64,000 bases of DNA, taken from NCBI GenBank assembly GCA_003241645.1, contig QFOX01000009.1, forward strand, positions 2,534 through 66,533. Direction: 5' to 3'. Origin of the DNA: Azospirillum brasilense (lineage in GTDB: Bacteria; Pseudomonadota; Alphaproteobacteria; Rickettsiales; UBA3002). Position numbers and translations under genes: made by a program. The notes under the pieces are model-generated. The model saw only the letters and a program-made list of their open reading frames with translations, had not been told where the DNA came from and did not search any database. Within the stretch, counting starts at the first letter, position 1, and each line of letters begins with the position of its first letter. Below are positions 5,771-53,645 of the stretch, one piece after another.

Positions 5771-5782
5771 GGTCGTTCTCCG

Positions 5783-7065: not shown

Positions 7066-7083
7066 TCGTTCTCCTGAGCTTCC

Positions 7084-7092
7084 AGCATAGCA
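7084..7092 (-). promoter_or_regulatory. Possible extended -10 element (TGcTATGCT) upstream of cassette 2
   Basis: Minus-strand reading gaaaaagttaacacttcgctgcTATGCTgg aligns with the equivalent region upstream of cassette 1 (gaaaaagttaaaattttggTATAATgc). There is no experimental support. Confidence 0.3.
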
Positions 7093-7149
7093 GCGAAGTG
7101 TTAACTTTTTCTAAAATGCGGCGGATTCTTTTGAACGGCGCAGGGCCCT

Positions 7150-7186
7150 AAAACAAAGCGGGCCGGGCGTTTTCAGCGCCCAGCCC
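7150..7186 (-). terminator. Rho-independent terminator after the TadG-like gene of cassette 1
   Basis: Minus-strand gggctgggcg-ctgaaaa-cgcccggccc followed by gctttgtttt, about 25 nt after the stop at 7210. Confidence 0.6.
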
Positions 7187-7209
7187 GTAATGGTCACGAA
7201 AGCATCTGC

Positions 7210-8424: not shown

Positions 8425-9110
8425 TACGGACACTCACTGTAGGTGAAAGCAGGGGGCAGGCAGATGAGCGGCTCGCCGCGGGGGCTGACGAACACGCTAC
8501 GGTAAAGCTGGGCGGCCGGAATGTTCAGGCCGAGCCCGGTCAGCACGCCCGCAAGGAACGGCTGGTAGTTGTAGAAAATTTCGCCGATGATGATGTTCTC
8601 GCCATCATACATGCCCGCGATGAGCCCGGCTTTTTCACCGCCGAACGTCACGGGGCTATTCTTCGCGGCGGGATTCGGCGGCCGGAACGGGCCGAAGCCG
8701 TTCACTTCACTGAGCACGCCGCCCAGCGACCCACCACCGCCCAGCTGCCATTTCACGCGCGTCTGCGCGCCTTCACGGCGGATGGAGGTGAGAATGCCCA
8801 CCACGCGTGGGTTCGCGGCACCACCCGTGTAGGGATCGATGATGCGCGGCACATTGGAGAAGACGTTATCGGTAAGTTCATATTCATGCAGCTCGCCCGC
8901 TTTCGGCGCAGACGTCGTCGCGCGCGGGTATTGCGCGGTCATGTTGGTGATGACGTAGGCGGCCTGCTCCAGCTTCTGGCTGATGACGATGTAACGCGCC
9001 AGTTCCGCCCCGCCGAGGAAGATCACCAGCAGGAATGGCAGCACGAAGGCGAACTCCAGCAGCGCGACGCCGCGGGTATTTCGAACGAACTGTGTAAAGA
9101 ATACGGTCAT
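8424..9110 (-). CDS. TadE/TadF-like pseudopilin (cassette 1, second gene)
   Basis: RNTRGVALLEFAFVLPFLLVIFLGGAELARYIV. The C-terminal half aligns with 5783..6460 (GENI[IV][IV]GE[IM]FY[NH]YQPFL ... ICLP). Confidence 0.75.
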   Translation of the reverse strand: MTVFFTQFVRNTRGVALLEFAFVLPFLLVIFLGGAELARYIVISQKLEQAAYVITNMTAQYPRATTSAPKAGELHEYELTDNVFSNVPRIIDPYTGGAANPRVVGILTSIRREGAQTRVKWQLGGGGSLGGVLSEVNGFGPFRPPNPAAKNSPVTFGGEKAGLIAGMYDGENIIIGEIFYNYQPFLAGVLTGLGLNIPAAQLYRSVFVSPRGEPLICLPPAFTYSECP

Positions 9111-9733
9111 TAGAAGGGCTCGTTCTTGAAGACGGTGCGGGCACTGATCATCACCACCCCGGTAGTGCCACCCTTACCGTCGGCACTCCCGAAATATTGG
9201 GCGAGGTAGGGAATCAGAACTTTCCATGGGTAGATCACGCGCACTTCCACCACGTCACCCGCGTTACCCACGGCTGCGGCGGCCGATGCGCCCTGATAGC
9301 CGGTGGCGCCATTGACTTCCTCGAACGGGCCCACATTGCCGGGGCCGCACACGGCCGGAGCAGAGCTAGGCTTTTGCGGATCGAACAAGCAAATATCCGG
9401 CAGGAAGGTGCCGCCATTGGCCAGCGTGTTGATCTGCACGATCGTATCGTCGCCACGAATGAGCGATTTGGATTTCTGCTGCACCACGCAGCGCATGTAG
9501 GACGCGCGGTCGGCCGTGCCGGCGCACGGGCCCGCGCTGTTGGACTTGCCAAGGCTGGATTCGCGCGCCGCCTGCATGGTGATCGCCTCCACCGCAATGC
9601 GGTGGAACATGTACAGCCCGAATTCAAGAATACCGAGGAACAGCAGGAAGAACACAGGGGCAACGAACGCGAACTCAATAATGTTCGCGCCGCGCTCATC
9701 GTTCAGAAAGCGTTGGAAGAATTGCTTGCTCAC
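9110..9733 (-). CDS. TadE-like pseudopilin (cassette 1, first gene)
   Basis: FFQRFLNDERGANIIEFAFVAPVFFLLFLGILEFGLYMFHRIAVEAITMQAARESSLG. I chose the GTG start at 9733, which is preceded by the SD aagaggaa. The longer ORF to 9868 would overlap rodA. Confidence 0.75.
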   Translation of the reverse strand: MSKQFFQRFLNDERGANIIEFAFVAPVFFLLFLGILEFGLYMFHRIAVEAITMQAARESSLGKSNSAGPCAGTADRASYMRCVVQQKSKSLIRGDDTIVQINTLANGGTFLPDICLFDPQKPSSAPAVCGPGNVGPFEEVNGATGYQGASAAAAVGNAGDVVEVRVIYPWKVLIPYLAQYFGSADGKGGTTGVVMISARTVFKNEPF

Positions 9734-9751
9734 CGGTTCCTCTTTCGTAGC

Positions 9752-9760
9752 ATTATACCA
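9752..9760 (-). promoter_or_regulatory. Possible extended -10 promoter element (TGgTATAAT) in the rodA-tadE spacer
   Basis: Minus-strand ...aaattttggTATAATgctacgaaagaggaaccGTG. A perfect TATAAT with an upstream TG lies ~20 nt before the GTG start. Confidence 0.4.
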
Positions 9761-9801
9761 AAATTTTAACTTTTTCCCACCTGTTTTTGCCCTTTTTTCG
9801 G

Positions 9802-10932
9802 CTAGATGCCGAATCGGCGGGGCATCACCAGTTCGCGGTTGATATACACATGCATCAATAGCCCGCACGCCATCAGCGTGGCCAGCATGAACGAGCCGCC
9901 GTAGGACAGGAACGGCAGCGGCACGCCCACCACCGGGATCATGCCCATGACCATGGCCATGTTAATGAAAATATGGACAAAAAGCATGGCGGCCACGCCC
10001 GCGGCAATGAGCCGGCCGAACTGGTGGCGGCAGCGCACCGCCAGCATCAGCGCGAACATCAGCAGCGCGCCATACAGGGTCAGCAGCACCGCCGAGCCGA
10101 GGAACCCAAGTTCCTCCGCCAGCATGGTAAAAATGAAATCCGTCTGTTTTTCCGGCAGAAAATCCAGCTGGCCCTGGCTGCCCTGCAGCAGGCCTTTGCC
10201 CGTGAGCCCGCCCGAGCCAATGGCGATCTTGGATTGAATGATGTTGTAGCCCGCACCCAGCGGGTCCGAATCGGGGTCGAGGAAGGTGCGCACCCGGCGT
10301 TTCTGGTAATCATGCAGGAAATGGTAGGCCACCGGCACCGCCGCCGCCACCCCGCCGATCGCCACCGCGAAATACTGCCAGCGAATGCCCGCCATGAAGC
10401 ACAGCGAAAACGCGATGAAGCTGACAATGGTGGCCGTGCCGAGGTTCGGCTGTTTCAGGATGAGCCCCACCGGCAACAGCGTCAGCATCAGCGGCACCAG
10501 CAGCAGGATGTAATGGCGCGTGCTGTCCATCGGTGCGCTGTGGAAGTAGCGCGCCAGTGCGAGGATGATGCCGAGCTTCATGAGCTCCGAGGGCTGGATG
10601 TTGAACGCCCCCACCCCGATCCAGCGTTGCGCGCCCATGCCGATGATGCCCATCACCTCCACGATCACCAGCATCACCACGCAGGCGGCGTAGAAGAAAT
10701 AGGCGCTGCGCATCAATAGTGGCGTGGGCGTAACGGCGATCACCAACATCATCGCCAGCCCCAGCACCATGCTCACCGATTGCTTCAGGGCGAACACGCG
10801 GAACTCACCGCCCGCGGCGGAATATTGCATGGCCAGCCCCAGCAGGCACAGCAGCATGATGACCAGCAGCATGCCGCCATGCATGGATTGTGCGCGGCCC
10901 TTCCAGCGTTTGATGTGCGTGCGGCTGATCAT
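9802..10932 (-). CDS. rodA: Rod shape-determining protein RodA (SEDS family peptidoglycan glycosyltransferase)
   Basis: Polytopic membrane protein with a FtsW/RodA-like C-terminus (...GVPLPFLSYGGSFMLATLMACGLLMHV). The start at 10932 forms an ATGA overlap with the mrdA stop. The N-terminal extension in the ORF track is not coding-like. Confidence 0.9.
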   Translation of the reverse strand: MISRTHIKRWKGRAQSMHGGMLLVIMLLCLLGLAMQYSAAGGEFRVFALKQSVSMVLGLAMMLVIAVTPTPLLMRSAYFFYAACVVMLVIVEVMGIIGMGAQRWIGVGAFNIQPSELMKLGIILALARYFHSAPMDSTRHYILLLVPLMLTLLPVGLILKQPNLGTATIVSFIAFSLCFMAGIRWQYFAVAIGGVAAAVPVAYHFLHDYQKRRVRTFLDPDSDPLGAGYNIIQSKIAIGSGGLTGKGLLQGSQGQLDFLPEKQTDFIFTMLAEELGFLGSAVLLTLYGALLMFALMLAVRCRHQFGRLIAAGVAAMLFVHIFINMAMVMGMIPVVGVPLPFLSYGGSFMLATLMACGLLMHVYINRELVMPRRFGI

Positions 10933-18002: not shown

Positions 18003-18473
18003 TTATGCTTTCACCGGCGGGGCGAAGGCTTCGATGGCACCCGGCTTGCGCAGCATTTTGTCCACTTCGCCGATATGCGTTTCTTCTTCCATGATGAGCC
18101 CGCGCGCGTATTCTTCCAGCATCACGGACTTGCCTTCCACCATCTTCAGCAGTTCATGGTAGAGCAGCAAGGTCGCCTGCTCATGCGCCAGCGATTCGCG
18201 CAGGATGTCGCCGATGTCGTGGTTGTGGGTTTCCAGCAATTTACCGATGCCAAGGCTGGGGTGACCGCCCAGCTGCGTGATGTATTCGCCCGCCTGCTGC
18301 GCATGCGTCATGGATTCGGTGGCCTGCTCGCGCAGCCACGACACGATGGGAATGCGGTTATAGCCGAACACCATCAGCGCGTAGTGGTTGTAGCGCACGA
18401 TGCCGGCAAGCTCCGCTTCCATGATCTTGTTGAGCGTGTCGATGACGGGTTTGGTGTCGAAATTGTAGGCCAT
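18003..18473 (-). CDS. Bacterioferritin/ferritin-like (Dps-ferritin superfamily) protein
   Basis: VIDTLNKIMEAELAGIVRYNHYALMVFG...ESMTHAQQAGEYITQLGG...LAHEQATLLLYHELL...EEETHIGEVDKML is a four-helix-bundle di-iron pattern (E, ExxH repeated). I chose the start at MAYNFD. Confidence 0.6.
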   Translation of the reverse strand: MAYNFDTKPVIDTLNKIMEAELAGIVRYNHYALMVFGYNRIPIVSWLREQATESMTHAQQAGEYITQLGGHPSLGIGKLLETHNHDIGDILRESLAHEQATLLLYHELLKMVEGKSVMLEEYARGLIMEEETHIGEVDKMLRKPGAIEAFAPPVKA

Positions 18474-23676: not shown

Positions 23677-25761
23677 CTAATTTGCCCGGCTGCGGCCCGG
23701 GGCCTCGGCGAAGAACTGCAGGCATTCCGCCAATCCTTCGGCGTTGAATTGCGGATCGCGCCACTGCGCGTTCTTTTTGCCCGCCTGCGGTTCTTTCTCA
23801 GGAATCTCGCCGCCGGGGAACATGGCCACGGTATTATCGAGCAACCCAAGCGCACGGCCGGTGACTTCTGCGTTCAACTCAATATCCTCGTTCAGCAGGC
23901 GTTTTGCGGCGCGCTTGCCAAGCTTATCGCTATGCGAAACTTTATCGGAGAAGCGCGGGCCCATCGCTTTGGGGTCATGCACAAAATTGCGTGCCGTATG
24001 CTGACGTGAATAATCACGTGCCGCATATTCGATGCATTGCTCATACAGCCCGGGAATGAACGGGTTATCCGCTAGATCGGCCGGGATGCCGTGGTTTGCA
24101 GCCACGTTACGCATCATGTCGGCCGCCAGGCGGGGAATACCGGCCTTCTGCTCCTCGGTCAACTGGTTGTAGTGGCGCCCGGCATGGTTACCGACGGACA
24201 TCATCGCATAAAGGCCGAAATCGTCATACGCGCCATCGGTCATCTCCAGGCACCAGTCGGAAGCCGTCTGGTACGAGGCATAGGCAAAATCCAGCTTCTT
24301 CTCCAGCGCGGCGAACCCTTCGCGCGTTTCCTTGCTGTTGAAGCCTGCATTGCGCTGCATGGCCACCATGGATTGGCCAAGATCATGCACGTAATCGCGC
24401 ATGAGCAACAAGGTTACCGGCTCGTCGCAGGCATACATGACCTGAAAGGCCTCATGGCTGATCGCGACATCCAGCTTATCCAGCATTTGCTCCATGGAAT
24501 GGCAGCCTTCGACCTTGGCGCGCCATTGCTTGGTGCGGTCGTGGAATATCTTCTCGGCACGCTCCATGCTGCCGATCTGCAGTGCCATCAGGTCGCTGAA
24601 GTTCCGCCCGTCGGACCAGTTCAGCTTCGCCTCGCGCTCCCATGCATGAAAACGCCGCGGCAACCCGGCGCGCGTGGTGCTGGCCGCATGCGCCGTTGCC
24701 TGCTCGATCTGCTCGGCGACGTCGTTGGGCACACCGCAGGCCTGATTGATTTCGGCGGCAAGCCAGTCCAGCACATCCGGCAAGGCGGCCTGATAGGGTG
24801 CGTCCTTCACCATGCCCGCCACATGCTGCATCACGTCGCGGTAATGGTCGCTCGTGGTCTGGGTCAGCAGTGCGTCATCCACCTCGTCCTGATGGCGGAA
24901 TGCGTTGAAACTGCGGCGCGTCGCCAGCGTTTCGGCCAGCACGCCCACCTGCCACATCACCGGGTGGGGAAACTTGTCCTCGGCATAGGTCATGCCGAAG
25001 CGGTGGTTGAGGAATTCGCGGAACAGCACCTGGCCCTGCTGGATGATCTCATCACCGGTCATCTCAACCTTGAAGCGCTGCTTTTTGTGCGCACCGTTGA
25101 GGTGGCTGAACAGCGCATCACTGCGCGCCGCGCGTTCGTGGTGATCCTGCGGCACGCCTTCTTCACGGGGGTGTGCGCCTGCAGCTTTTTCTTCCATTTC
25201 GGCCACGCGCTGTTCACGCAGGGTTTCTTCGGCCCAGTCCACCAGGTTGCCGGTGCTTCCGGCGGTCTGCAGCAGGATGGAGCTTTTGAGGTTCCCCGCC
25301 GTCACAAAGCTTGCATCATACACATCAATCAGGCGGCGCATGTCTTTCTGCTGCTCGGCGCTCATCAGGCCCTTTTCACCGAGGATGCCGGTGACGGCGA
25401 TCACAAACTGATCGGCCAGTTCGCGCTTCATCTGCGCAGCGCGGAAATCATTGTTCGAGAAAAACAGCTCTTCTACTTTGCTGCGAATGTAGCGGTCGAA
25501 ATGCGTCAACATTTCCTGCGCCGTGTCCGATTGATCGGCAATGGTGTTGAGATGGGCTTTTTCTTCCTCCAGCTCCTCCAGCACTTCTTGAATATCAAAA
25601 TAGGTATGGTCGGGGAACTCACCCACCACCGCCGCGCGCAGTTTTGCGTTCCTTGGCTCAATCAGCGTTTTCGCCAAATGAATATCGTAGCTTTCCGCGG
25701 CCATATCCACCGCCGTACTCACCAAGCCTTTGATCGGTCCGAATTGCATGCCATTCCCCAT
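23677..25761 (-). CDS. Hypothetical protein (694 aa), predicted mostly helical, no recognisable domain
   Basis: Long ORF between miaA and ilvI on the same strand. It has no signal peptide, no TM segment and no motif I recognise. Confidence 0.6.
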   Translation of the reverse strand: MGNGMQFGPIKGLVSTAVDMAAESYDIHLAKTLIEPRNAKLRAAVVGEFPDHTYFDIQEVLEELEEEKAHLNTIADQSDTAQEMLTHFDRYIRSKVEELFFSNNDFRAAQMKRELADQFVIAVTGILGEKGLMSAEQQKDMRRLIDVYDASFVTAGNLKSSILLQTAGSTGNLVDWAEETLREQRVAEMEEKAAGAHPREEGVPQDHHERAARSDALFSHLNGAHKKQRFKVEMTGDEIIQQGQVLFREFLNHRFGMTYAEDKFPHPVMWQVGVLAETLATRRSFNAFRHQDEVDDALLTQTTSDHYRDVMQHVAGMVKDAPYQAALPDVLDWLAAEINQACGVPNDVAEQIEQATAHAASTTRAGLPRRFHAWEREAKLNWSDGRNFSDLMALQIGSMERAEKIFHDRTKQWRAKVEGCHSMEQMLDKLDVAISHEAFQVMYACDEPVTLLLMRDYVHDLGQSMVAMQRNAGFNSKETREGFAALEKKLDFAYASYQTASDWCLEMTDGAYDDFGLYAMMSVGNHAGRHYNQLTEEQKAGIPRLAADMMRNVAANHGIPADLADNPFIPGLYEQCIEYAARDYSRQHTARNFVHDPKAMGPRFSDKVSHSDKLGKRAAKRLLNEDIELNAEVTGRALGLLDNTVAMFPGGEIPEKEPQAGKKNAQWRDPQFNAEGLAECLQFFAEAPGRSRAN

Positions 25762-33465: not shown

Positions 33466-35826
33466 TTATGCGTTGCTGCGCGCGCCGATCTCCTGCCCGT
33501 TGGCACCGAAGCGCAGCGACTGCAGCGAGCCGTCTTCGTTGCGCAGCACGGCACCCTGCATCACGTTGCCGCTGCGGAAGGCGAGCGCAGCGTTGGCCGC
33601 AGCTTCGCGGGCACGCTGGGTCTGCTCCACGGCGGCCACTTGCAGGCCACGGTCGGCCCGGCCAGCGGCACCGTCGGTCGCCGCCACCTGCGTGGCTTGC
33701 GGATGGGCGCGGTCGTAGCGGCGCTCGGCCCACATGCCGCTGAAGATGCTGACGATGCCACCCACAATGGTGCCACCGATGGCACCTGCCGGCACGGTCA
33801 GCGGGGCGAACGGGCCGCCGCACAGGCCGAGGCCCGCACCACCAGCCGCAAACGTGCCAATGGTGGCCAGCTGCACGCCGGCGCGGTTCTGGGTGCGCTC
33901 ATCGTCACGGGCAATGGCCACGCCCAGCTCACCGGTGTGGTAGACCGGCGCAATGAAGGCACCGGCACGCATTACACCGATTTTCAGGGCACTGAGCGAG
34001 GTAGCGGTCAATGCGGTGGTGTTGGCAGCGCTGACACCGCGCACAAGCGTGTTCTCGGCGGTCGCGGTTTCCACGGCGGCGGTCGCCGGCGTTGCAACCA
34101 AGCCCGCCACGCCAAGGAAGCCAAGCGCGCCGCCAATGCCGGCAAGGCCACGGCCAACATACGGAACGCTGCGCAGTTTGCCGAGGCTGCTGGAAAGGCG
34201 GCCCAGCATGCCGGTGCGGCTGGCGGCCTGCGCCACATCGGCGGTCGCATCGACCGTTTCTGCCGCCGCCGCCGCAGCGGCCGGTGCAGCACCGTTGCCA
34301 CGCAGGTTATTGAAGGCTTCGCGCGCGTTGCGCACATCGTTCCCGGCGCTTTCGACCACGCGGCTGGCGACCGGCTCGGTCACGAAACCGAACGCGTTGC
34401 CAATGCCACGGCCCGCCATACGCGGCCAGTTGAACGGGTTTTTCCAGCTGAGCGATTCACCGGCCTGATCGGCCACGGCACCCACGGCACGCACAGTGGC
34501 GTGCGAGCTGCCGCGCAGGTTGCCCACGCGCTCTTCGGGTGCACCGAAGCGATCGGCGCGGGTCTGCGCGTGTTCATAACGCTGCTGCGCGCGTTCCAGT
34601 TCGCTGCGCACGGCTTCGGCGCTTTCCGGGCGGCGGAAGAACGAGCGGCGCTCGCCAGCTTCGGCACGCGCCAGGCGCGCTTCAAGATCATCCACGCGTT
34701 GGGCGGCACTGGAAGCGGCACCTTGCGCACGTTCGGAGGGTTTCACCACATGGCGGCGGGTCAGCGATTCGGTCGCGCCACGGGCGACCTGCACCGTACC
34801 CACGGCACCGAGGCCAGCACCCACGACTTCTTCCGGCGTATCGATGCCGCTCAGGCGCTCGCCCATGCGCTGGGTGAAGCCGTTGCCTGCACGGCGCACT
34901 GCGTCGGCGGCGGTGCCGGTCACGCTTGCATCCGCACCGATGGGGTTGCCGTTCGCATCCGTCTGCGCGCCGGGCGCGTTCGGGGTGGGGTTCTCGCTGC
35001 TGGGGGCCGCGATGTTCATGTTGTTGCCGGCTGCGTCCTGCGCGACACCCCCGCGGCTGAGGAACTCACCAAGGCGTGCACCATTGATGCCGCCAATTTC
35101 CGGCACTTTGGCGAATTCGTCGCGCACGATGCCCATGTCGGTATCGACCAGCGCGCGTTGCAGGTGCTCATCGAAGCTGCGGGCGGGGGCTTGCCCATCG
35201 AAATACTGGCCGACCCACGGCAGCTGGGCCAGCAGCGGGCGCACGAAATCCCATGCGGTGGCGAAGGCCGCGCGGGTGTAGGCCCACACATTGCCAAAAC
35301 TCGAGAACATGCCGCCACGGTTTTCCGACTGCGCCTGCAGCACGCTGCCATAGGCCGCACCGATCTCGCGGGCCTGCGCCTCGCTGAGCTGGCTATTGAA
35401 GCCTTCATTGATCACATCGCTGCCAAAGCCCAGAATGCCTTTGGCGAAATCCACCGGAAGCATCAGCCCGTTGCCGACGGCACCGGCCACGCGCACGGTA
35501 CCGGTCACGGCACCGGCCACACCGCTGGCGGCATCCATGCCCACGCCGAGGCCAAGGGCACGCGCCGCGTCGGCCAGCGGGCCGGTCACGGTGCTGAGTT
35601 GTTCACGGGTGGGGGCGGTGCCCGATACCCAGCTTTTCAGTTGGTCCAGCGCGCCCTGGCGTTGCGCCGGGTCCTGGATCGCGAGAATATCACCGTAGGC
35701 CTTCATGAGCGCCGACACCTGATCCGCGTAGCCTTTGTAGGGTGCGCGCAGCTCATCGTAGCTGTAGCGCAGCGCCAGGCTTTCCTGCGGGGTGGTGGTG
35801 GGTGCGGGGGTCTGTTCGTTACTCAT
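33466..35826 (-). CDS. Hypothetical Ala/Gly-rich protein (786 aa) with C-terminal glycine-zipper-like hydrophobic segments
   Basis: Long ORF with no N-terminal signal peptide. C-terminal segments GLAGIGGALGFLGVAGLVATPA and ATIGTFAAGGAGLGLCGGPFAPLTVPAGAIGGTIVGGIVSIFSGMW look like small-xxx-small membrane hairpins. The middle region is coiled-coil-like (DDLEARLARAEAGERR...ELERAQQRYEHAQ). Confidence 0.6.
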   Translation of the reverse strand: MSNEQTPAPTTTPQESLALRYSYDELRAPYKGYADQVSALMKAYGDILAIQDPAQRQGALDQLKSWVSGTAPTREQLSTVTGPLADAARALGLGVGMDAASGVAGAVTGTVRVAGAVGNGLMLPVDFAKGILGFGSDVINEGFNSQLSEAQAREIGAAYGSVLQAQSENRGGMFSSFGNVWAYTRAAFATAWDFVRPLLAQLPWVGQYFDGQAPARSFDEHLQRALVDTDMGIVRDEFAKVPEIGGINGARLGEFLSRGGVAQDAAGNNMNIAAPSSENPTPNAPGAQTDANGNPIGADASVTGTAADAVRRAGNGFTQRMGERLSGIDTPEEVVGAGLGAVGTVQVARGATESLTRRHVVKPSERAQGAASSAAQRVDDLEARLARAEAGERRSFFRRPESAEAVRSELERAQQRYEHAQTRADRFGAPEERVGNLRGSSHATVRAVGAVADQAGESLSWKNPFNWPRMAGRGIGNAFGFVTEPVASRVVESAGNDVRNAREAFNNLRGNGAAPAAAAAAAETVDATADVAQAASRTGMLGRLSSSLGKLRSVPYVGRGLAGIGGALGFLGVAGLVATPATAAVETATAENTLVRGVSAANTTALTATSLSALKIGVMRAGAFIAPVYHTGELGVAIARDDERTQNRAGVQLATIGTFAAGGAGLGLCGGPFAPLTVPAGAIGGTIVGGIVSIFSGMWAERRYDRAHPQATQVAATDGAAGRADRGLQVAAVEQTQRAREAAANAALAFRSGNVMQGAVLRNEDGSLQSLRFGANGQEIGARSNA

Positions 35827-40404: not shown

Positions 40405-41670
40405 ATGATCGCCCCGACACATGCTGCACGCCGTTTCTCCGACGACGAACCCGTTGCGTTGGCAAAACACGCGATCGTGCTGCTGGAACAGCATCTGGCG
40501 CAGCGCTATGGCGTGTATTGGGAAGGCGGCGCTGAAGTGGAATTCACGGCCCGCGTGCGCCCCGGGCTTGACCACGCGCGCATGCGCTTTGGCACCCGCG
40601 ACAGCGCAGCCGTCAAGCAACATGGCACCGGGGCATCGGCCAGCAAGCACCCGTTCCACAAAGACGCATGGTTCCCCGACAGCCGTTATGTCACCTACGG
40701 TTACCGCGAATATGGCGGGTACGGACCGCACGCCATGCTGGAAGCCGTGCTCACCCACGAGCCTGCCGGGGCCGATGGCACGCCCCTGCCCCATCACGGC
40801 ATGCAGCTCGCCCGCAATATCGAGGCACTGCGCTACCAGCTGCGCAGCCCGGCACCGGGCTACAAGAACACGCCGGTGCAGGCCCCCAACCCGGTGCAGT
40901 ACCACCTGACGGAAGCCACCCGCCAGGCGCAGGCTTTGTGGCACACCCTGCTGCCGACCGCGGGCGCACCCCCGGCCGAGAACCCCCATCGCGCGGGGCG
41001 CTGGCAGGCATTCCACCGCACCCGGCTGGCCGAGGTGGCGTTCGGCACCTTCCTGCCCGAGCACGAAGCGCACGAAGCCATGACGCTTGGCCTGCACATC
41101 AACAGCAGCCTGAAAGACATAGAAACCGGCGAAAGCGTGCACCCCACCCGCGAACACACGGCCAACCTGTTGCACGCCACCCAGCGCATGATGCATGCGG
41201 GCGGCTACCTGCTCAACCCCACCGACGATAACTGGCAGCGCTGGTCGCACCGCACCGCCGACGCGCCGTTCAGCCGCTACCAAGGTGAGCGCAATGCGCG
41301 CGAGGTGAAGGTGGTGGATGGTGCCGGCGGCTTCTACATGGAAAACAAATTACCCCCGGCCAATTGCAACCCCTACTACGCCCTGATGCTGCAATTCATG
41401 GCGTTCGAGGTCGCCTTGCGCGAGCAGCATTTCCAGCGCACGGCCGAGGGCTACAGCCTGCAGAGCGCCCCCACGGGGCCGGTCATTCCCGCCGCATCGC
41501 CCGCGCAGCAGAAGCAGCAATTCTTCGATGGCGCGCTACAGGGGGAACTGAACCGGCTGGAGGATGGCCTCGGCGATCGATTCCTTGCCGCCATTGCCCA
41601 TATGCCGCCCGGCACCGAGAAGACCGCCATGGATAAACGCCACGCCGAAAAAGGCGAGCATCTGCGCTGA
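40405..41670 (+). CDS. Divergent glutamine synthetase / glutamate-cysteine ligase superfamily (carboxylate-amine ligase-like) protein, paralog 1
   Basis: The ordered motifs are GAEVEF, EAVLTHEP, GLHINSSL and ENKLPPANCNPYYALML. They parallel the GS blocks ExEF, HHE, GxHxHxSL and ExRxPxxxxNPYLA. It aligns block by block with 42574..43797. Confidence 0.55.
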   Translation: MIAPTHAARRFSDDEPVALAKHAIVLLEQHLAQRYGVYWEGGAEVEFTARVRPGLDHARMRFGTRDSAAVKQHGTGASASKHPFHKDAWFPDSRYVTYGYREYGGYGPHAMLEAVLTHEPAGADGTPLPHHGMQLARNIEALRYQLRSPAPGYKNTPVQAPNPVQYHLTEATRQAQALWHTLLPTAGAPPAENPHRAGRWQAFHRTRLAEVAFGTFLPEHEAHEAMTLGLHINSSLKDIETGESVHPTREHTANLLHATQRMMHAGGYLLNPTDDNWQRWSHRTADAPFSRYQGERNAREVKVVDGAGGFYMENKLPPANCNPYYALMLQFMAFEVALREQHFQRTAEGYSLQSAPTGPVIPAASPAQQKQQFFDGALQGELNRLEDGLGDRFLAAIAHMPPGTEKTAMDKRHAEKGEHLR

Positions 41671-41696: not shown

Positions 41697-42482
41697 TTAG
41701 AAGTTCGCGAAAAAGATCATCGTGCAGGCATTGGCGCTGCTGTTGGTCAACTGGTAGTCGGACCCCGTATCGCTGCTGGACGCGGCCGTGGTGCAGCTGG
41801 TAATGCGCCCGCCATGCACTTTGCCGCGGCCGGGCTTGCCGTCATCCATTTTGGTGTCGAGGTTCCAGGCTTCCTCGGCTTTGAGGATAGGGTTGGTCGT
41901 GGGTTCGAGGGTACGCTGCGCGCCAAGGAAATACACGTTCGCGGGATAGTTCAACCCATCGAAGAACGACCCGCCACTGATCACGATATCGCCGCGGATC
42001 AGTGTCCAGCCTGCATTGCTGATTTTTGAGCGCGGTATGTTGACGCCGATCGTCGACGTATCCGCATCGCCGCCATTCGCCCCGGTATAGGTGCCCTCCA
42101 CCAGTCCGGCGAGCGCCAGTTGCTGCCAGTGGCGGAACACCTCGCCTGTCGCCCCGGCGGTGCTGGAGCCCACTTCCATGTTGCCGTCCCCATCGCCATT
42201 GCAGGTGCCGGGCGTGGCGGCCGTACCGCTATCGCCACTGCAAAGCGTGTTGTCCTTGCCCCAGAAGGCGGTGGCATTGGTCATGTCGCCGGGAAGGGCG
42301 AAATATTTGTCGCGGAACGTTTGCGTGGCGGTGACCCAGCGCTGGTATTCGGTGCTGGCGGCCCGCAGTTCGGCCGCGCGGATCAGCGCCTGTCCACCAA
42401 GGATGCCCCCCGTAAGCAAGCCAAGAATCACGAGAACAATAGAGAGCTCGACAAGCGAGAACGCATGCTGATTTTCCGACAT
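41697..42482 (-). CDS. Prepilin-like protein (paralog 2 of 5)
   Basis: MSENQHA-FSLVELSIVLVILGLLTGGILGGQALIRAAELR, FRDKYFALPGDM, C-x12-C-NGDGDG, WQQLALAGLVEGTYTG, EEAWNLDTKMDDG, and a C-terminal Cys pair. Confidence 0.8.
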   Translation of the reverse strand: MSENQHAFSLVELSIVLVILGLLTGGILGGQALIRAAELRAASTEYQRWVTATQTFRDKYFALPGDMTNATAFWGKDNTLCSGDSGTAATPGTCNGDGDGNMEVGSSTAGATGEVFRHWQQLALAGLVEGTYTGANGGDADTSTIGVNIPRSKISNAGWTLIRGDIVISGGSFFDGLNYPANVYFLGAQRTLEPTTNPILKAEEAWNLDTKMDDGKPGRGKVHGGRITSCTTAASSSDTGSDYQLTNSSANACTMIFFANF

Positions 42483-42573: not shown

Positions 42574-43797
42574 ATGACGGAACACACGGACAAGCTTTCC
42601 TCCCGCGCTTCCCTACGCGACGACCCGCCCGTGGCGCTGGCGAAGCGCGCCATCAAGCTGCTGGAAGCGAAGATCCGGCAGGAATTCGACCTAGAATTGC
42701 CGCTTGGCGTGGAGCTGGAATTCGGCGTGCTCTCCAACCAGCGCCAGCATAAGGCCTCGCCCGCCGAACAGTATGGCGTGCCGGATGCGCTGGGCAAGAT
42801 CAGCAACCACACCGCCTCGGCCTACCGCCACCCCAAGAACCGCGATGCGTGGTTCCCCGAGAGCCGCCGCGTGGCGTACAGCTACCGCGAAGAAAGCAAC
42901 GACGACCGCTGGGACATGATGGAAGTGGTGCTGACGCATGAGCCCCGCGGGCAGGACGGCACGCGCCTGCCGATCGATGCGCTGGCCACCGCCCGCGCCG
43001 TGGAAGCGCTGCGCCACCAGCTGCACCAGCCCTCCAGCGGTTACATGCCGCGCAAGCATGGCGCTGGTATCCCTACGGCGCAGCTGGGCGTACGCTACTG
43101 GCAGCAGCAACGCCGCGACACCATCGATATGCTCGTCACCGAGGCCGTGGTGCCCGGCACCTTCAACAGCCATGGCATGCACCTGAACATGAGCCTGGTG
43201 GATGCCTCCACGCAGGAGAACGTCATGCTGCGCTCAGGCCTGAGCGCGGAGACGGTCACCAACATGCTGCGCCAGGGCATCGGGGCGGTGCAGATGGAAA
43301 ATTTATGGCTGGTCTGCCCGCATCGCCGTTCCATGGAGCGGCAATCCATGCGCATGGGCCCGATCAGCGACGTGATGGGCCGGGTGAAGAACAAGCGCGG
43401 CCAGAAAGATTATGTGGAAAATTCGCTGCCGGGGGCCGACTGCAACCCCTATTACGCCATCATGCTGCAACTGGCGGGCACCTATCTGGCGCTGAAAGAG
43501 GCGCAGTTCGGCTATGATTACACGACGCAGCAGCATGTGCTGGGCAACCCCGATTACGCGCAGGACCTCAAGGCACCGCAGCCCGGCGAGAAGCAGGTGA
43601 ATGCGCTGACACTGAACGATTTGCAGGCAAATTTCCGTGCGGGGTCGCACCTGCGTGACGCGCTGGATGCCTGCGAGCCCGGGCTGGGCGATGCGTTCCA
43701 TCACGCCATCGAGCAGACCCCACCGGGCTACGAGAAAAGCGGCATGGACAAACTTCAGAAAACGCGGCGCACACTAGCGCCGCAGCGCGATCGTTAG
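42574..43797 (+). CDS. Divergent glutamine synthetase / glutamate-cysteine ligase superfamily (carboxylate-amine ligase-like) protein, paralog 2
   Basis: GVELEF, MEVVLTHEP, GMHLNMSL and ENSLPGADCNPYYAIML occur in the same order as in 40405..41670. The N-terminal (DDPPVALAKRAIKLLE) and C-terminal (PPGYEKSGMDK) blocks are also shared. Confidence 0.55.
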   Translation: MTEHTDKLSSRASLRDDPPVALAKRAIKLLEAKIRQEFDLELPLGVELEFGVLSNQRQHKASPAEQYGVPDALGKISNHTASAYRHPKNRDAWFPESRRVAYSYREESNDDRWDMMEVVLTHEPRGQDGTRLPIDALATARAVEALRHQLHQPSSGYMPRKHGAGIPTAQLGVRYWQQQRRDTIDMLVTEAVVPGTFNSHGMHLNMSLVDASTQENVMLRSGLSAETVTNMLRQGIGAVQMENLWLVCPHRRSMERQSMRMGPISDVMGRVKNKRGQKDYVENSLPGADCNPYYAIMLQLAGTYLALKEAQFGYDYTTQQHVLGNPDYAQDLKAPQPGEKQVNALTLNDLQANFRAGSHLRDALDACEPGLGDAFHHAIEQTPPGYEKSGMDKLQKTRRTLAPQRDR

Positions 43798-45127: not shown

Positions 45128-45341
45128 AATGGTCCCGTGGTTCAATGCACTGTTATGTAACGCGCATGATGGCGCGCTCAAGCTTCTTTTTAGCGCGTTT
45201 GTGTAAACAATTCGTTGCCACATATGCAAGCCCCCTGTGAAGAAGGTTGACAGGCCGTCATTTTTTCCCTTTGTTTTCCACGATTTTAGCCATTTCCGGG
45301 GTTTGTCGAGTGCCAGCGCTTTCTTTGCATTTGTTGCAGTT

Positions 45342-46286
45342 ATGTCACAGGGGTTGCCGATGAGCATCGCGGCCCACCAGCGCGCCTTGCTTTCCGCCGC
45401 CCAGATGGGGCAGCTGCAGGCCCTGCGTGAGCTCTATGGCGCGGCTGCGCCGCATGTGTCGTTCGAATTCTTCCCCCCCAAAACGCCCGAGGCCGAGGAA
45501 AAGCTCTGGGGCGTGATCGGCACGCTGGCGCCGCTGAAGCCGCGCTTTGTTTCCGTGACCTACGGCGCGGGTGGCTCCACGCGCGAGCGCACGCACAGCA
45601 CGGTGGCCCGCATTCGCCGTGAAACCGAACTGACGCCGGCCGCCCACCTCACCTGCGTCAACGCCACGCGCGAGCAGATCCGCGAAGTGGCCCAAAGCTA
45701 TTGGGATGCAGGCGTCAAACACATCGTCGCGCTGCGCGGCGACATGCCCGATGGCGGCGGCTACGTGCCCACGCGGGGCGGTTATGAATACGCCGACAGC
45801 CTCGTCGCCGGGCTGAAAGACGTGGCGGATTTTGATATTTCGGTGGCCGCTTACCCCGAAATGCACCCCCACGCGCTCAGCGCACAGGCTGACATCGACC
45901 ACCTGAAACGCAAGTTCGATGCCGGGGCGAACCGCGCCATCACCCAGTTCTTCTTTGATGTGGACGTGTATCTGCGCTTCATGGACCGCGTGCGCGCCGC
46001 CGGCATCGAGGCGGAGATCGTGCCCGGCATCCTCCCCGTCACGAACGTGGCGCAGCTCAAGCGCTTTGCGGCCTTCAGCGGCACCAGCGTGCCGGCATGG
46101 CTGGGCACGCTGTTCGAAGGGCTGGACGAAAAGCCCGAGCTGCGCAACCTTGTGGCCGCCATGGTCACGGCCGAACAATGCCGCATGCTCATGCTCAACG
46201 GCATCGACCATTTCCATTTCTACACACTGAATCGCGCCGAATTGACGCAGGCAATTTGCCATGTGCTCGGTGTTCGTGTAAGCTAA
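45342..46286 (+). CDS. metF: 5,10-methylenetetrahydrofolate reductase
   Basis: VSFEFFPPKTPEAEEKLW...FVSVTYGAGGSTRERT...HLTCV...NRAITQFFFD are MetF motifs. The start is ambiguous between 45342 and 45360. Confidence 0.92.
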   Translation: MSQGLPMSIAAHQRALLSAAQMGQLQALRELYGAAAPHVSFEFFPPKTPEAEEKLWGVIGTLAPLKPRFVSVTYGAGGSTRERTHSTVARIRRETELTPAAHLTCVNATREQIREVAQSYWDAGVKHIVALRGDMPDGGGYVPTRGGYEYADSLVAGLKDVADFDISVAAYPEMHPHALSAQADIDHLKRKFDAGANRAITQFFFDVDVYLRFMDRVRAAGIEAEIVPGILPVTNVAQLKRFAAFSGTSVPAWLGTLFEGLDEKPELRNLVAAMVTAEQCRMLMLNGIDHFHFYTLNRAELTQAICHVLGVRVS

Positions 46287-46291
46287 AGCGC

Positions 46292-47062
46292 ATGAGAAAC
46301 GCTTTCTCCCTCGTTGAACTCTCGATCGTGCTGGTCATCCTTGGCCTGCTGACGGGCGGCATCCTTGGCGGGCAGTCACTCATCCGCGCGGCGCAGATCC
46401 GCGCCGTGACCACGGAAATGAACCGCTTTGCGACGGCGACGATGACCTTCCGTGACAAGTATTTTGCGGTGCCCGGCGATATGAGCAATGCGATCAGCTT
46501 CTGGGGGAAAGCCGCCGGAACCGGCACCGATTCCACCTGCGCCGATTTCGCCAGCACAAGCCCGGCAACGTGCAACGGGAACGGGGATGGTCGCATCGGC
46601 ACTGCGCCGGAAGTGTATGAAGAGATGCGCTATTGGCAACATCTGGCGAATGCGGGACTCATCGAAGGCAGTTACACAGGCACTTACACGTCGGGCGTAG
46701 GGTACGCATTCGGCGTCAATACGCCGCAAAGCAAGCTGTCGCCCGCCACATGGTATCCATGGCATTTCGGCAACCTCGCGGCCACGACCAGTGATTTCGG
46801 CGGCAGTTTTGGGAATGTGCTGGAGATAGGCGCATGGGATGGCGGCTCCACAACACCCCCTGTTCTGCGCCCCGACGAAGCGTGGAACATCGACGTTAAA
46901 ACCGATGACGGGGCCCCCGCAAGCGGCAAGGCCATTGCAGGCAAAGGCACCACTGCGCGGCCCTGCACCTCGAATGCCAATAACATATCGGATGCAAATG
47001 CCACCTATAACCTGACCAACACCGGTGTTATCTGCTACTTGCGCTTTACAAATGCGTTCTAG
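46292..47062 (+). CDS. Prepilin-like protein (paralog 3 of 5; first of tandem array)
   Basis: MRNA-FSLVELSIVLVILGLLTGGILGGQSLIRAAQIR, FRDKYFAVPGDM, C-x10-C-NGNGDG, WQHLANAGLIEGSYTG, DEAWNIDVKTDDG. The ATG lies 5 nt after the metF stop. Confidence 0.82.
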   Translation: MRNAFSLVELSIVLVILGLLTGGILGGQSLIRAAQIRAVTTEMNRFATATMTFRDKYFAVPGDMSNAISFWGKAAGTGTDSTCADFASTSPATCNGNGDGRIGTAPEVYEEMRYWQHLANAGLIEGSYTGTYTSGVGYAFGVNTPQSKLSPATWYPWHFGNLAATTSDFGGSFGNVLEIGAWDGGSTTPPVLRPDEAWNIDVKTDDGAPASGKAIAGKGTTARPCTSNANNISDANATYNLTNTGVICYLRFTNAF

Positions 47063-47095
47063 CACGATGCATGCATATCAAGGGTTCGCAATCTC

Positions 47096-47842
47096 ATGAA
47101 ACAGGCTTTCTCCCTCGTTGAACTCTCGATCGTGCTGGTCATCCTTGGCCTGCTGACGGGCGGCATCCTTGGCGGGCAGTCGCTCATCCGCGCGGCGGAG
47201 CTGCGCAGCATCCCGGTCGAGTACAACAAATACATGACCGCCATGCAGACCTTCCGCGACAAGTATTTCGCCCTGCCCGGCGACATGAGCAACGCCACCA
47301 AATTCTGGACGGCGGCGGCCAGCTGCCCCGGTGATTCCACCACGCCCGCGACCGGCCCGGCCACCTGCGATGGCGACGGCAATGGGATCCTCGGCGTGGT
47401 CGAGCGCTACCGCGTCTGGCACCATCTGGCGAACGCGGCGCTGATCGAGGGCACCTACACCGGCGTTCCGGCCACCGCCACCCCGGCACATCTGAGCGTG
47501 GGCAGCAACGTGCCGCGCTCCAAGCTCAGCAATAGCGGCGTGCAGATCTCCAAACTCTCCGACACCAGCAGCGGCATTCTCTACAACGCAGGCGATTCGC
47601 GCCACTCGCTTATGTTCCTCGGCACCGCGACCATTCAGGTTTCCAACCCTTCGGCCATCCTGCTGCCGGAAGAAGCATGGAACATCGACACGAAAATGGA
47701 TGACGGCGCGCCGGGCACGGGCAACGTCCTGAATTACAACACCGCCAGCACCACGGTGGGCACCTGCACCACCAGCGCCAGCGCCTATGCGCTCACGCTC
47801 ACCAGCAAGGCCTGCGCGCCCTATATTATGTTTAATTTTTAA
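47096..47842 (+). CDS. Prepilin-like protein (paralog 4 of 5)
   Basis: MKQA-FSLVELSIVLVILGLLTGGILGGQSLIRAAELR, FRDKYFALPGDM, C-x13-C-DGDGNG, WHHLANAALIEGTYTG, EEAWNIDTKMDDG. Confidence 0.82.
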   Translation: MKQAFSLVELSIVLVILGLLTGGILGGQSLIRAAELRSIPVEYNKYMTAMQTFRDKYFALPGDMSNATKFWTAAASCPGDSTTPATGPATCDGDGNGILGVVERYRVWHHLANAALIEGTYTGVPATATPAHLSVGSNVPRSKLSNSGVQISKLSDTSSGILYNAGDSRHSLMFLGTATIQVSNPSAILLPEEAWNIDTKMDDGAPGTGNVLNYNTASTTVGTCTTSASAYALTLTSKACAPYIMFNF

Positions 47843-47892
47843 CGCGCACCGGTTACACTGCACGTATCCACCGCCCAACGGATCGCGCCCTT

Positions 47893-48687
47893 ATGAAAAA
47901 ACAGGCTTTCTCGCTCGTTGAACTGTCCATCGTCCTCGTCATCCTTGGGCTGCTCACCGGCGGTATCCTCGGCGGGCAGTCGCTCATCCGGGCCGCGGAG
48001 CTGCGCTCCATTACGGCGGATTTCAGCCGCTACAACGCCGCCTTCCGCACCTTCCAGGATAAATATTTCGCCTTCCCCGGCGACATGCGCAACGCCACCG
48101 CCTTCTGGGGGTTTGCGGCCGGCACCGCGGGCAACGACGCCACCTGTTTCAACGCCACCCAGACCGGAGCGGGCACCTGCAATGGCGACGGCAACGGCGA
48201 CCTGATCAGCCCGCCCACCGCTTCGGCCACTAACCCGCAAGGCGAAACATTCCATGCATGGAAGCAGATGGCCAATGCCGGGTTGGTCGAAGGCACCTAC
48301 ACGGGCTATCGCGGCACCGGCGGGGCCTATAACACCACGCCGGGCGTGAATGTACCGCGTGGGCGCATCAGCAATGCCGGGTTCTCCCTGTGGTCGAACG
48401 CCGCATCGCATATCGATGCGAACTGGTTCCCCACCAAATCCGGCCCGTTGCTGATGTTCGGCACCTCGACCACCGGCATCACCGAATCGCCCGCCATCAA
48501 ACCCGAGGAAGCATGGAACCTCGACACCAAACTGGACGATGGGCGGCCCGGCTTAGGCAATGTGCGCACGCACAAACAGGGCAGTTCGTTCACGCCGAAT
48601 TGCACCGATACGACCGATCCGAACACCGCGGCTTATGTGCTGAGCAGCAACGGCGTGCTGTGCAACATCTACATGTTCATGCTGTAA
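47893..48687 (+). CDS. Prepilin-like protein (paralog 5 of 5)
   Basis: MKKQA-FSLVELSIVLVILGLLTGGILGGQSLIRAAELR, FQDKYFAFPGDM, C-x10-C-NGDGNG, WKQMANAGLVEGTYTG, EEAWNLDTKLDDG. Confidence 0.82.
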   Translation: MKKQAFSLVELSIVLVILGLLTGGILGGQSLIRAAELRSITADFSRYNAAFRTFQDKYFAFPGDMRNATAFWGFAAGTAGNDATCFNATQTGAGTCNGDGNGDLISPPTASATNPQGETFHAWKQMANAGLVEGTYTGYRGTGGAYNTTPGVNVPRGRISNAGFSLWSNAASHIDANWFPTKSGPLLMFGTSTTGITESPAIKPEEAWNLDTKLDDGRPGLGNVRTHKQGSSFTPNCTDTTDPNTAAYVLSSNGVLCNIYMFML

Positions 48688-52784: not shown

Positions 52785-53645
52785 TTAATTGCGGCCCTGC
52801 CCGCGACCCTGGCCACGGCCCGCCTGCTGCATGGCATTCTCCAGGAATTTGCCCGCAAGGTTCAACCCCTGGGCGGCGAGTTTCTTCACCGTGTCCTTCG
52901 CGTCTTCATACACGGCGAGCTGGCCGGTAGCATAGGTCAGGTGCGACTGTTCCACGCGCTTCTTCTCGCTGTCCAGCCCGCGTTCGATCTGCGCCAGCAT
53001 GGCCAGCGCTTCCTGCTTTTCGCGGGCGGAAAGCACTTTGCGCGCCAGCATCGCCTGAATGCGTTCGCGCAGGTCGTCGCGCTCCACATGGTTCATCTCG
53101 GCCATGGCCTGCGCGTTACTCATTTTACCGGCGATGAGCTGCGACAGGATCTGCTCCACCAGCCCAACATCGGCCACGCTGGCATCCACCGCATCGACGC
53201 GGCTTTTGAAATTGCGATCGGCCACGGGGGCGAACAGCGCCGCAAAGAAGACCGTATAATCCCTGTACAGCGCGGTGATTTCGGCGCGCACGCCCTGCGG
53301 CGGCATTTTGTTGAATCCCGCACCCGCCTCGTTCTGCCGCACCAGCGCGGTGGAGAAGGATTTCTCCGTGGTGCGGTTAATATAGCCGGTCGGACGGTCA
53401 GGAATGCTGCGCAGCACCGAGAGGTCATAGGCAAGATTCTCGACCGACAGGCGGCTATTCTTGGCGTAAATATCGGCGGTGCCGGAGGTCAGCGCGCGCA
53501 CGGCATCATGGAAATGTTCGATGCGCGGGCGCATGTCGCCCTCGCTCAGGCGAATGCCCCATTCCGCCTCGATGCGCAGCAGCTGCTCGTATTTGCCATG
53601 CATCAGCGCGATGATGGCGCCTTGTTCTTCACTGGCTACGGCCAT
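52785..53645 (-). CDS. Hypothetical helical protein (286 aa) with a C-terminal GRGQGRGQGRN tail
   Basis: Long ORF divergent from hemW with only 14 nt between the start codons. No recognised motif. Confidence 0.55.
   Translation of the reverse strand: MAVASEEQGAIIALMHGKYEQLLRIEAEWGIRLSEGDMRPRIEHFHDAVRALTSGTADIYAKNSRLSVENLAYDLSVLRSIPDRPTGYINRTTEKSFSTALVRQNEAGAGFNKMPPQGVRAEITALYRDYTVFFAALFAPVADRNFKSRVDAVDASVADVGLVEQILSQLIAGKMSNAQAMAEMNHVERDDLRERIQAMLARKVLSAREKQEALAMLAQIERGLDSEKKRVEQSHLTYATGQLAVYEDAKDTVKKLAAQGLNLAGKFLENAMQQAGRGQGRGQGRN

Follow-up and report, generated by a model that had tools for sequence, protein, structure and literature searches.

Five prepilin-like genes on an alphaproteobacterial contig belong to a very large family of type IV pilin-like proteins

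Contig QFOX01000009.1 of assembly GCA_003241645.1, deposited as Azospirillum brasilense, contains within a stretch of 64 000 nucleotides (positions 2534 to 66 533; this whole stretch is called the window below) five open reading frames (ORFs) for large proteins that begin like prepilins and carry Ala, instead of Gly, just before the Phe that would open the mature chain. What are these proteins, and is the Ala, which was taken in the initial annotation of the locus as a distinguishing anomaly, the mark of a new type of signal? The answer reached here is that the five genes are local representatives of a family of type IV pilin-like proteins that is very large and uncurated. The interesting part lies in the scale of that family and in the size of its members; the use of Ala for Gly is ordinary.

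The five genes and their class III signal

The five ORFs are all present where they had been annotated, one of them on the minus strand, which had gone unstated. Copy 1 (41..811, plus strand) encodes 256 amino acids (aa), with a leader MKQTA followed by FSLVELS..., and scores 307 bits against the hidden Markov model (HMM) of the family; copy 2 (41697..42482), the one on the minus strand, encodes 261 aa, with a leader MSENQHA and a family score of 313 bits. The other three, all on the plus strand, stand head to tail: copy 3 (46292..47062, 256 aa, leader MRNA), copy 4 (47096..47842, 248 aa, leader MKQA) and copy 5 (47893..48687, 264 aa, leader MKKQA), the last being the copy that was modelled and having an identical protein in NCBI, encoded on a 73-kb contig and named 'MAG: hypothetical protein DI582_03220'. 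This array lies directly downstream of metF, the gene of methylenetetrahydrofolate reductase (45237..46286, plus strand; PF02219, E = 1.2e-96), and the gaps of 5, 33 and 50 nt initially given between the metF stop (46286) and copies 3, 4 and 5 are exact. Mechanically delimited ORFs of copies 1 and 3 reach further upstream, to 11 and 46097, respectively; the shorter starts were preferred because the N-termini across the family agree with them. The GC content at third codon positions (GC3) is 0.77-0.84 in the five copies, like that of the surrounding genes, and they are therefore considered to be real coding sequences.

The other four copies are 44-50% identical to copy 1, and 79 columns are invariant in the five-copy alignment, a resemblance that is consequently far beyond chance. 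The whole of AFSLVELSIVLVILGLLTGGIL is among these columns, and the blocks FRDKYFAxPGDM, C[ND]G[DN]G[DN]G, WxxxAxAxLxEGxYTG and AWN[LI]D[TV]KxDDG are partly invariant. Two conserved Cys pairs are found in all five copies. The shared blocks are thus much as first described, except that the EEAWN sequence is not universal, copy 1 reading EQAWN. The predicted mature length is 244-259 aa (the family median is 254 aa), which bears out the statement that the mature parts are much larger than usual pilins.

In each copy the leader is followed by an identical FSLVELSIVLVILGLLTGGIL, with Phe at position +1 and Glu at position +5, and the residue at -1 is Ala in 5/5, exactly as annotated. The profile searches that had been proposed at the outset gave matches to both general models of the signal: all five copies pass TIGR02532 (18.7-21.9 bits for a cutoff of 16.3, the extremes being copies 1 and 2, respectively), and two of them pass PF07963 (N_methyl), for which the scores range from 19.5 to 25.1 bits, the latter being that of copy 2, around a gathering score of 21.2. 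The leaders in the window are 4-7 aa long and Phe+1 is invariant, as in type IVa pilins. Judged from these sequences, the prepilin signal is genuine, a class III signal being present in all five proteins. In copy 5 the predicted leader corresponds to 47893..47907 (plus strand), with cleavage expected after Ala5 in view of the -1 residues of the whole family described below, and the hydrophobic α1-N segment, with Phe+1 and Glu+5, to 47908..47970 (plus strand); this segment is nearly invariant family-wide as well.

Is Ala at -1 then an anomaly? Of the 124 sequences in an alignment that joins the five copies of the window to their 119 top-ranking homologues, 121 could be read at this position: Gly is present in 63 and Ala in 58. 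Among 141 distinct genomic copies drawn from 25 sources (24 related genomes and this window), Gly occurs 84 times, Ala 57 times and no other residue is found. Both residues coexist within one genome, with Gly/Ala counts of 14/13 in UBA3002, 14/7 in JBBKVX and 3/12 in CAZOFC, and even within a single tandem array (locus L003), the leaders of which end as MRQG, ...RRG, MRHA and MRHA. The strict limit to two tiny residues is what is expected of a true cleavage site, and the presence of Gly and Ala copies in one genome implies that one peptidase per genome must accept both. Ala(-1) is therefore a normal alternative to Gly in this family, neither an anomaly nor a new signal type, and since the two alternate family-wide, the uniform Ala of the window is a lineage sample of a normal polymorphism. 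Ala is also, reportedly, the -1 substitution that Strom and Lory found in 1991 to be tolerated by the PilD peptidase of Pseudomonas aeruginosa. Published statements on the point disagree: according to Berry and Pelicic, bacterial leaders "invariably" end in Gly (PMC4471445), whereas Imam et al. give Gly or Ala as residues at which PilD cleaves and use the pattern [GAS]x4[DE] in PilFind (PMC3244431), and Ala(-1) is documented in ComG pilins (PMC7212644).

Inside the invariant N-terminus, many third-codon positions vary in the DNA of the five copies; given this variation at synonymous sites, α1-N is kept by selection on the protein. The exception is provided by copies 3 and 4, which are identical, synonymous sites included, over the first ∼77 nt past the Ala codon (46301..46377 and 47105..47181); this suggests local gene conversion or a very recent duplication.

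The lack of an obvious Shine-Dalgarno sequence had been presented as a trait setting the family genes apart. Duplex energies were calculated for 52 genes of the window, with the reservation that the start codons of many neighbouring genes are uncertain. They are indeed weak for the family genes (+1.8 to -4.3 kcal/mol), but many other genes are equally weak, and the trait was dropped as not diagnostic. A search for sigma-54 promoters gave a single match in the window, at 18035, and none upstream of the family genes. As to neighbours, copy 2 is flanked by genes of two paralogous, glutamine-synthetase-like proteins of ∼410 aa (40405..41670 and 42574..43797, both on the plus strand; 33% identity, E = 1e-49); the latter has a weak partial match to the glutamine synthetase catalytic domain and the former is without NCBIfam match.

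Fold of the protein and extent of the family

The structure of copy 5 was predicted with AlphaFold2 from the 124 family sequences, a prediction that had been suggested with the initial annotation, and the resulting model is a very confident one (pLDDT 95.5, pTM 0.88). It has the "lollipop" shape of pilins: one continuous helix of 51 residues (8-58), which includes the hydrophobic segment, followed by a globular alpha/beta head with strands at 162-169, 184-191 and 259-262 and a helix at 204-214. A long N-terminal helix carrying a globular head is the architecture of the type IV pilin superfamily, of which the family has the sequence and fold features. Comparison of the model with the PDB by Foldseek gave no match at E ≤ 1e-3, the best E-value being 8.5e-3. 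Matches with a probability above 0.5 are limited to type IV pilins, namely the type IVb pilin CofA of enterotoxigenic Escherichia coli (9iuf_A) and PilA1 of Clostridioides difficile; CofA has a probability of 0.97 and a TM-score of 0.41 when normalised on the query and of 0.51 when normalised on the target, the next entries are 6t8s and 3s0t, and sequence identity to these fold matches is 8-13%. Profile searches of the five proteins gave no Pfam, NCBIfam or PDB-sequence match for the head domain. A search of PDB sequences with the five-copy profile found nothing significant, its best result being the EF-hand loop of mitrocomin at chance level (E = 1.4). On the model, then, the architecture is that of a pilin and the head is unlike any solved structure, which agrees with the initial remark that no described subfamily fits.

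Conservation along the alignment is uneven. Entropy is near zero at residues 6-40, i.e. α1-N and the start of α1-C, low at 54-73, 95-102, 118-138 and 204-219, and high at 103-117, 141-150, 161-200 and 221-264. The most conserved stretch of the head contains the EEAWNLDTKLDDG block of copy 5 (residues 205-217; 48505..48543, plus strand), which lies on the modelled helix 204-214; the overlapping PEEAWNxDxKxDDGxP is conserved at 80% or more, with a mean entropy of 0.73 bits for residues 211-220 and of 1.14 bits for residues 201-210. After the first Cys pair comes a loop C-N-G-D-G-N-G (residues 96-102; 48178..48198, plus strand), part of a TCNGxGxG sequence conserved family-wide. A DxDxDG/EF-hand-type loop is matched at its positions 1, 3, 5, 6 and 8 by the segment N-G-D-G-N-G-x-[IL], and from this pattern the NGDGNG loop is a plausible candidate for a Ca2+ site, of which the non-significant mitrocomin alignment is the one computed hint. 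Towards the C-terminus, C237 is nearly invariant and C257 invariant (copy 5 numbering); they resemble the Cys pair of the pilin D-region and may form a disulfide.

How does the family compare with known pilins? It shares with the type IVa major pilins (the PilA/PilE class, including PilA of Myxococcus xanthus) a short leader, Phe+1, Glu+5, a 21-residue α1-N, a helix of ∼50 residues with a globular head and, near the C-terminus, a Cys pair reminiscent of the D-region. Another likeness is the companion machinery found in relatives, PilB, PilC, PilT and PilU with an ABC ATPase; the M. xanthus pil locus, too, holds ABC components, PilGHI. The differences are that residue 22 belongs to a GGILxGQ motif and is Gly or Ala instead of Pro, that the head is without a Pfam, NCBIfam or PDB-sequence match, that each genome carries paralogues by the tens, for the most part distant from the pil cluster, and that the -1 residue is Gly or Ala at about 60:40. 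Size is a further difference, since the mature proteins of 244-259 aa are to be compared with less than 165 aa for structurally characterised major pilins and 208 aa for PilA of M. xanthus, itself termed "unusually large" (PMC11046646). Large globular heads are also found in the type IVb pilins (CofA, TcpA) and in C. difficile PilA1, which provide the best fold matches, but their leaders are of 15-30 aa, instead of 3-12 aa in this family, and Met, Leu or Val replaces Phe+1; moreover, the clusters of relatives of this family include retraction ATPases. Membership of the type IVb class was rejected on the short leaders, on Phe+1 and on the mature length (∼180-200 aa in that class), the link being a weak fold similarity to CofA. 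Streptococcal ComG pilins resemble the family by a leader that ends with Ala(-1) and a canonical hydrophobic tract with Glu5 (PMC7212644), but they are small proteins of monoderm hosts, encoded by a single comG operon and without similarity in the head.

Three other assignments were tried and discarded. GspG, GspH and PpdD give 12-19 bits, for cutoffs of 80-138, over the N-terminus only, and no gsp neighbours were seen. The type IVc group (Flp/TadE/TadF) is excluded by the lack of any PF04964 or PF07811 match in the five proteins. The last concerns the prepilin-tagged DUF1559, or H-X9-DG, proteins of Planctomycetes and Verrucomicrobia, which combine a class III signal with a large head of unknown function and are greatly expanded, as here; they come from another phylum, the corresponding block of our family is E-X9-DG, and no match to PF07596 or TIGR04294 was found at E ≤ 1.

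The initial annotation spoke of a five-member family, which turned out to be a considerable understatement. A homology search returned 5043 proteins, and an HMM search among 1.84 billion cluster representatives at 50% identity matched 15 487 clusters at E ≤ 1e-3, 12 994 at E ≤ 1e-10 and 6313 at E ≤ 1e-30; the family thus comprises at least 6313 clusters, with tens of copies per genome. Relatives are encoded by 488 stretches (contigs, one genome per species). The 78 loci that were kept come almost all from uncultured Alphaproteobacteria ("Rickettsiales bacterium", "uncultured Azospirillum", UBA3002, UBA6178, UBA6189), and rescanning them with the family HMM gave 155 matches, the five window copies among them. 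Once duplicates are removed, there are at least 27 copies in UBA3002, 22 in JBBKVX, 15 in CAZOFC and 13 in JBIISI, these counts being lower bounds because only part of each genome is covered. Tandem arrays reach 12 copies on a 10.7-kb contig (L002), and in another case nine copies lie within 20 kb (L005). The penicillin-binding protein PBP2 of the window has its 120 best matches, at 59-98% identity, all in uncultured relatives, and the architecture of the pilus clusters described in the next section suggests an affiliation with the Micavibrionales.

Single copies are present in Ancylobacter sonchi VKM B-3145 (L011), Sphingobium sp. AN641 (L038) and a Hyphomicrobiaceae metagenome-assembled genome (MAG; L020). 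By-eye reading of these three loci places them next to ORFs for a MobA-like relaxase and a tyrosine recombinase (integrase-like), with other ORFs of mobile-element type. From this location of isolated copies, horizontal transfer as mobile-element cargo seems likely.

Pilus genes in related genomes

The closest association with pilus genes is seen in the genome UBA3002. In one of its loci (L067), the gene of a PilU-like ATPase is followed 29 nt downstream by a family copy and then, on the opposite strand, by genes for an ABC ATPase, three unknown proteins and PilC (T2SSF); in another (L003), four family copies are followed by pyrD, the gene of a tetratricopeptide-repeat (TPR) protein and, at the contig end, pilT. 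Five family copies of this genome flank, or sit inside, a type IVa pilus cluster. Homologues of the L067 PilU are common in the same kind of MAGs, and the same cluster, TPR-PilT-PilU / ABC-x-x-x-PilC-PilB, was found in four more genomes (L082-L085), one of which, UBA6178 (L083), has family copies too. The order there is pyrD, M23 peptidase, TPR, PilT and PilU, then on the opposite strand ABC, three unknowns, PilC and PilB. PilB consists in these four of MshEN and T2SSE domains (612-781 aa) and, because an MshEN-domain PilB occurs together with PilT and PilU, the clusters can be taken to mark a retractile type IVa pilus. Within 10 kb of the L082-L085 clusters there is no family copy and no gene with an N_methyl match; consequently, the pilin genes must have another location in the genome, as suits a dispersed family. 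The three genes that stand beside that of the ABC ATPase, between PilU and PilC, in L082-L085 and L067 are without Pfam match; their products are of ∼320-430, 215-235 and 566-576 aa in the four genomes and of 340, 225 and 639 aa in L067, and they may be unrecognised alignment components similar to PilM/N/O/P/Q.

A parallel exists in Micavibrio, an epibiotic predator that is studied as a candidate "living antibiotic". Strain ARL-13 of Micavibrio aeruginosavorus has in GMV_1534-1544 the PilT, PilT/U, TPR, ABC, T2SS-F and T2SS-E components of L082-L085, with three hypothetical proteins as there (PMC3189940, supplementary file 4); the genes are those of a secretin (GMV_1534), two PilT-type ATPases (GMV_1535 and 1536), a leader peptidase (GMV_1537), a TPR protein (GMV_1538), an ABC ATPase (GMV_1539), three hypothetical proteins (GMV_1540-1542), T2SS-F (GMV_1543) and T2SS-E (GMV_1544). 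Four genes away from this cluster lies GMV_1530, a prepilin-type gene of 744 nt (247 aa) with expression values of 34.5 (attack phase) and 196.5 (attachment phase; PMC3189940). By size it is apparently a single copy in ARL-13, whereas the MAGs of this family have many.

Other genes recur near family copies. In L030 (7457..11581), lptB and rpoN are followed by the gene of a CpaF/TadA-like ATPase (best NCBIfam model TIGR03819, 311 bits) and by three family copies in the same orientation. The same lptB-rpoN-CpaF/TadA-like context occurs in L052 (3038..5653), there being one or two such ATPases across L030 and L052. In L017, L040 and L041, a virB8-virB9-virB10-virB11-virD4 type IV secretion cluster directly precedes one family copy; these three loci also share their downstream housekeeping genes, and the arrangement was read as conserved chromosomal synteny rather than as a sign of a role in type IV secretion. 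The most recurrent neighbours across the 78 loci are OmpR-type response regulators and PAS histidine kinases; in at least six genomes (L012, L026, L054, L056, L025 and L051) such a regulator is found one or two genes from a family copy. A functional link was set aside in favour of synteny or coincidence because spacing and orientation vary; these neighbours could reflect regulation or plain synteny.

The ORFs scanned in the window itself are mostly housekeeping genes, among them ndk, mreBCD-pbp2-rodA, ilv, leuA, degP, hflKC, thyX, mlaAC, metF, motAB, gshB and the gene of an NAD-dependent glutamate dehydrogenase, and a few match no known protein family. It also has six consecutive genes for Tad-type pseudopilins (4721..9868, minus strand), of a filament class other than that of the five genes: two are TadG-like with VWA domains (4721..5770 and 7210..8433, both on the minus strand) and four are TadE-like (5783..6580, 6460..7065, 8424..9110 and 9110..9868, all on the minus strand). 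CpaF, TadB/C, RcpA and TadV are not found within the 64 kb. Four long ORFs are without NCBIfam match: 23677..25761 (minus strand, 694 aa), 33466..35826 (minus strand, 786 aa), 3338..4717 (plus strand, 459 aa) and 52785..53645 (minus strand, 286 aa). The first, third and fourth were also scanned with Pfam and gave no match; for 33466..35826 the reading frame is uncertain, since its GC profile by codon position is atypical (GC2 0.56) and the opposite strand has an ORF just as long.

Filament subunits or other surface proteins

What could such a family do? On balance, and with a good deal of room for doubt, we favour the proteins being prepilin-peptidase substrates that a retractile type IVa pilus of the Micavibrio type uses as alternative subunits with variable surfaces. 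The prepilin would enter the inner membrane through its 21-residue hydrophobic α1-N. A PilD-type peptidase, tolerant of Gly or Ala at -1, would then remove the leader of 3-12 residues, and the exposed Phe+1 would perhaps be N-methylated. The type IVa machine, with PilB as extension ATPase, PilC as platform and PilT/PilU as retraction ATPases, as in relatives, would move the subunit from the membrane into the filament. Compatibility of the paralogues with one machine would be ensured by the invariant α1 and by a conserved core of the head, made of FRDKYFxxPGDM, LANAGLxEGxYTG, PEEAWNxDxKxDDG, two disulfides and the possible Ca2+ loop CNGDGNG, while the surface would differ from one paralogue to the next through the variable segments (∼141-200 and 221-264). 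With its many copies, a genome would thereby have a repertoire of alternative subunits that changes adhesion specificity or antigenicity, which would benefit cells that, like the related predator Micavibrio, attach to others.

Several observations weigh against this proposal. Tens of paralogues per genome far exceed the known repertoires of major pilins, and most copies sit amid housekeeping genes. DUF1559 of Planctomycetes is a similarly expanded family for which a role in filaments is unproven. Direct adjacency of family copies to type IVa pilus genes is found in one genome, UBA3002, and the three copies of L030 follow an ATPase that is CpaF/TadA-like and not PilB-like. No gene for an assembly ATPase, a platform protein, a secretin or a prepilin peptidase is present among the ∼50 ORFs of the window that were scanned; the initial annotation was correct on this absence, which is however no sign of an orphan system, since relatives carry a type IVa cluster. 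Peptidase_A24 and secretin genes were found in none of the fetched loci, and a search with a regular expression for GxGD-type peptidases, in all ORFs of the 78 loci and of the window, gave a spurious match only. The likeness of GMV_1530 is one of annotation and size, which makes it a lead, a candidate member of the family. Finally, at ∼250 aa the mature chain would be longer than M. xanthus PilA, which with 208 aa is the largest major type IVa pilin characterised structurally (PMC11046646).

According to the main rival reading, a prepilin peptidase does process the proteins, but they are not filament subunits: they would be binding proteins of the periplasm or cell surface, anchored in the inner membrane or displayed on a very short pseudopilus, with a different ligand for each paralogue, comparable to the archaeal bindosome or to DUF1559. 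This is unlikely in our view, without being negligible. It would account well for the very high copy number (at least 27 in UBA3002 and 22 in JBBKVX, and 12 in the 10.7-kb array), for the location of most copies among housekeeping genes, away from any machinery, and for a large head with its own fold and variable loops; bindosome proteins with class III signals have indeed been described (PMC4471445). Yet neither PF07596 and TIGR04294 nor any solute-binding family is matched at E ≤ 1, the fold matches with a probability above 0.5 are all filament-forming pilins, α1-N, which is the filament interface, is near-invariant beyond the need of a plain membrane anchor, and in UBA3002 the type IVa pilus cluster has family copies inside it. 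A place in another part of a filament seems quite improbable, whether as minor or tip-located pilins (adhesins) or as building blocks of a second filament that has a CpaF/TadA-like ATPase as its motor. The order rpoN, CpaF/TadA-like ATPase, three family copies in L030 and the six TadE/TadG-like genes of the window speak for it, and large modular minor pilins are known, PilB of Streptococcus sanguinis being an example (PMC8179133). But minor pilin operons normally mix several families, where here there is one; the proteins have a (G/A)FxxxE signal with Phe+1 where Flp/TadE have G/xxxxEY, and PF07811 and PF04964 are not matched; and the proximity of the CpaF-like gene is seen in one genome only.

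Two further explanations carry very little weight. That the proteins are pseudopilins of type II secretion, GspG-like or GspH-like, is highly unlikely: weak matches to TIGR01710 (GspG) and TIGR01708 (GspH) exist, one homologue is named 'type II secretion system protein' in NCBI, and GspC, G, H and K are reported in the Micavibrio paper to be missing from the annotated type II system, with the suggestion that pilins may take their place. These matches, however, reach 12-19 bits for cutoffs of 80-89 and cover N-terminal residues only, the proteins are about twice the size of GspG, a gsp operon context occurs in no locus, and the ATPases beside family copies are of the PilT/PilU type. Least probable of all is that most copies are silent or rarely expressed cassettes donating sequence to one expressed locus, as in pilE/pilS antigenic variation. 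Such a system could explain the many tandem copies, the ∼77-nt identity of copies 3 and 4, with the conversion or very recent duplication that it suggests, and the lack, upstream of the five copies in the window, of any strong Shine-Dalgarno sequence or sigma-54 motif. But each copy forms a complete ORF that has a start codon and a leader of its own and in which the conserved blocks are intact, while neisserial pilS cassettes lack the 5' end; the GC3 of 0.77-0.84 matches that of expressed genes, and copies other than 3 and 4 differ at synonymous sites in the conserved region.

An extension of the pilus-subunit reading, possible but rather doubtful, may be put forward. Uncultured Alphaproteobacteria, probably cell-attaching or predatory, would build a retractile type IVa pilus from interchangeable subunits of ∼250 aa, the largest major pilins known, chosen among tens of paralogues per genome (more than 6000 clusters at 50% identity); the pilus surface would be a programmable adhesin that sets prey or host recognition, copies would travel on mobile elements into unrelated Alphaproteobacteria such as Sphingobium and Ancylobacter, and the peptidase would be naturally relaxed for Gly or Ala at -1.

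What does the family mean beyond this locus? It has more than 6000 diverse clusters and no curated model of the head domain, most members being labelled hypothetical or by their N-terminal motif only. The Gly/Ala alternation at -1 within genomes suggests that pilin predictors need not require Gly. Should the proteins be filament subunits, the size range of type IVa major pilins would extend well beyond M. xanthus PilA. Neisseria varies its pilin through one expressed gene and silent cassettes; dozens of complete paralogues, combining an invariant assembly helix with variable surfaces, would be an unusual diversification strategy, and the family could explain partner recognition by Micavibrio-like bacteria.

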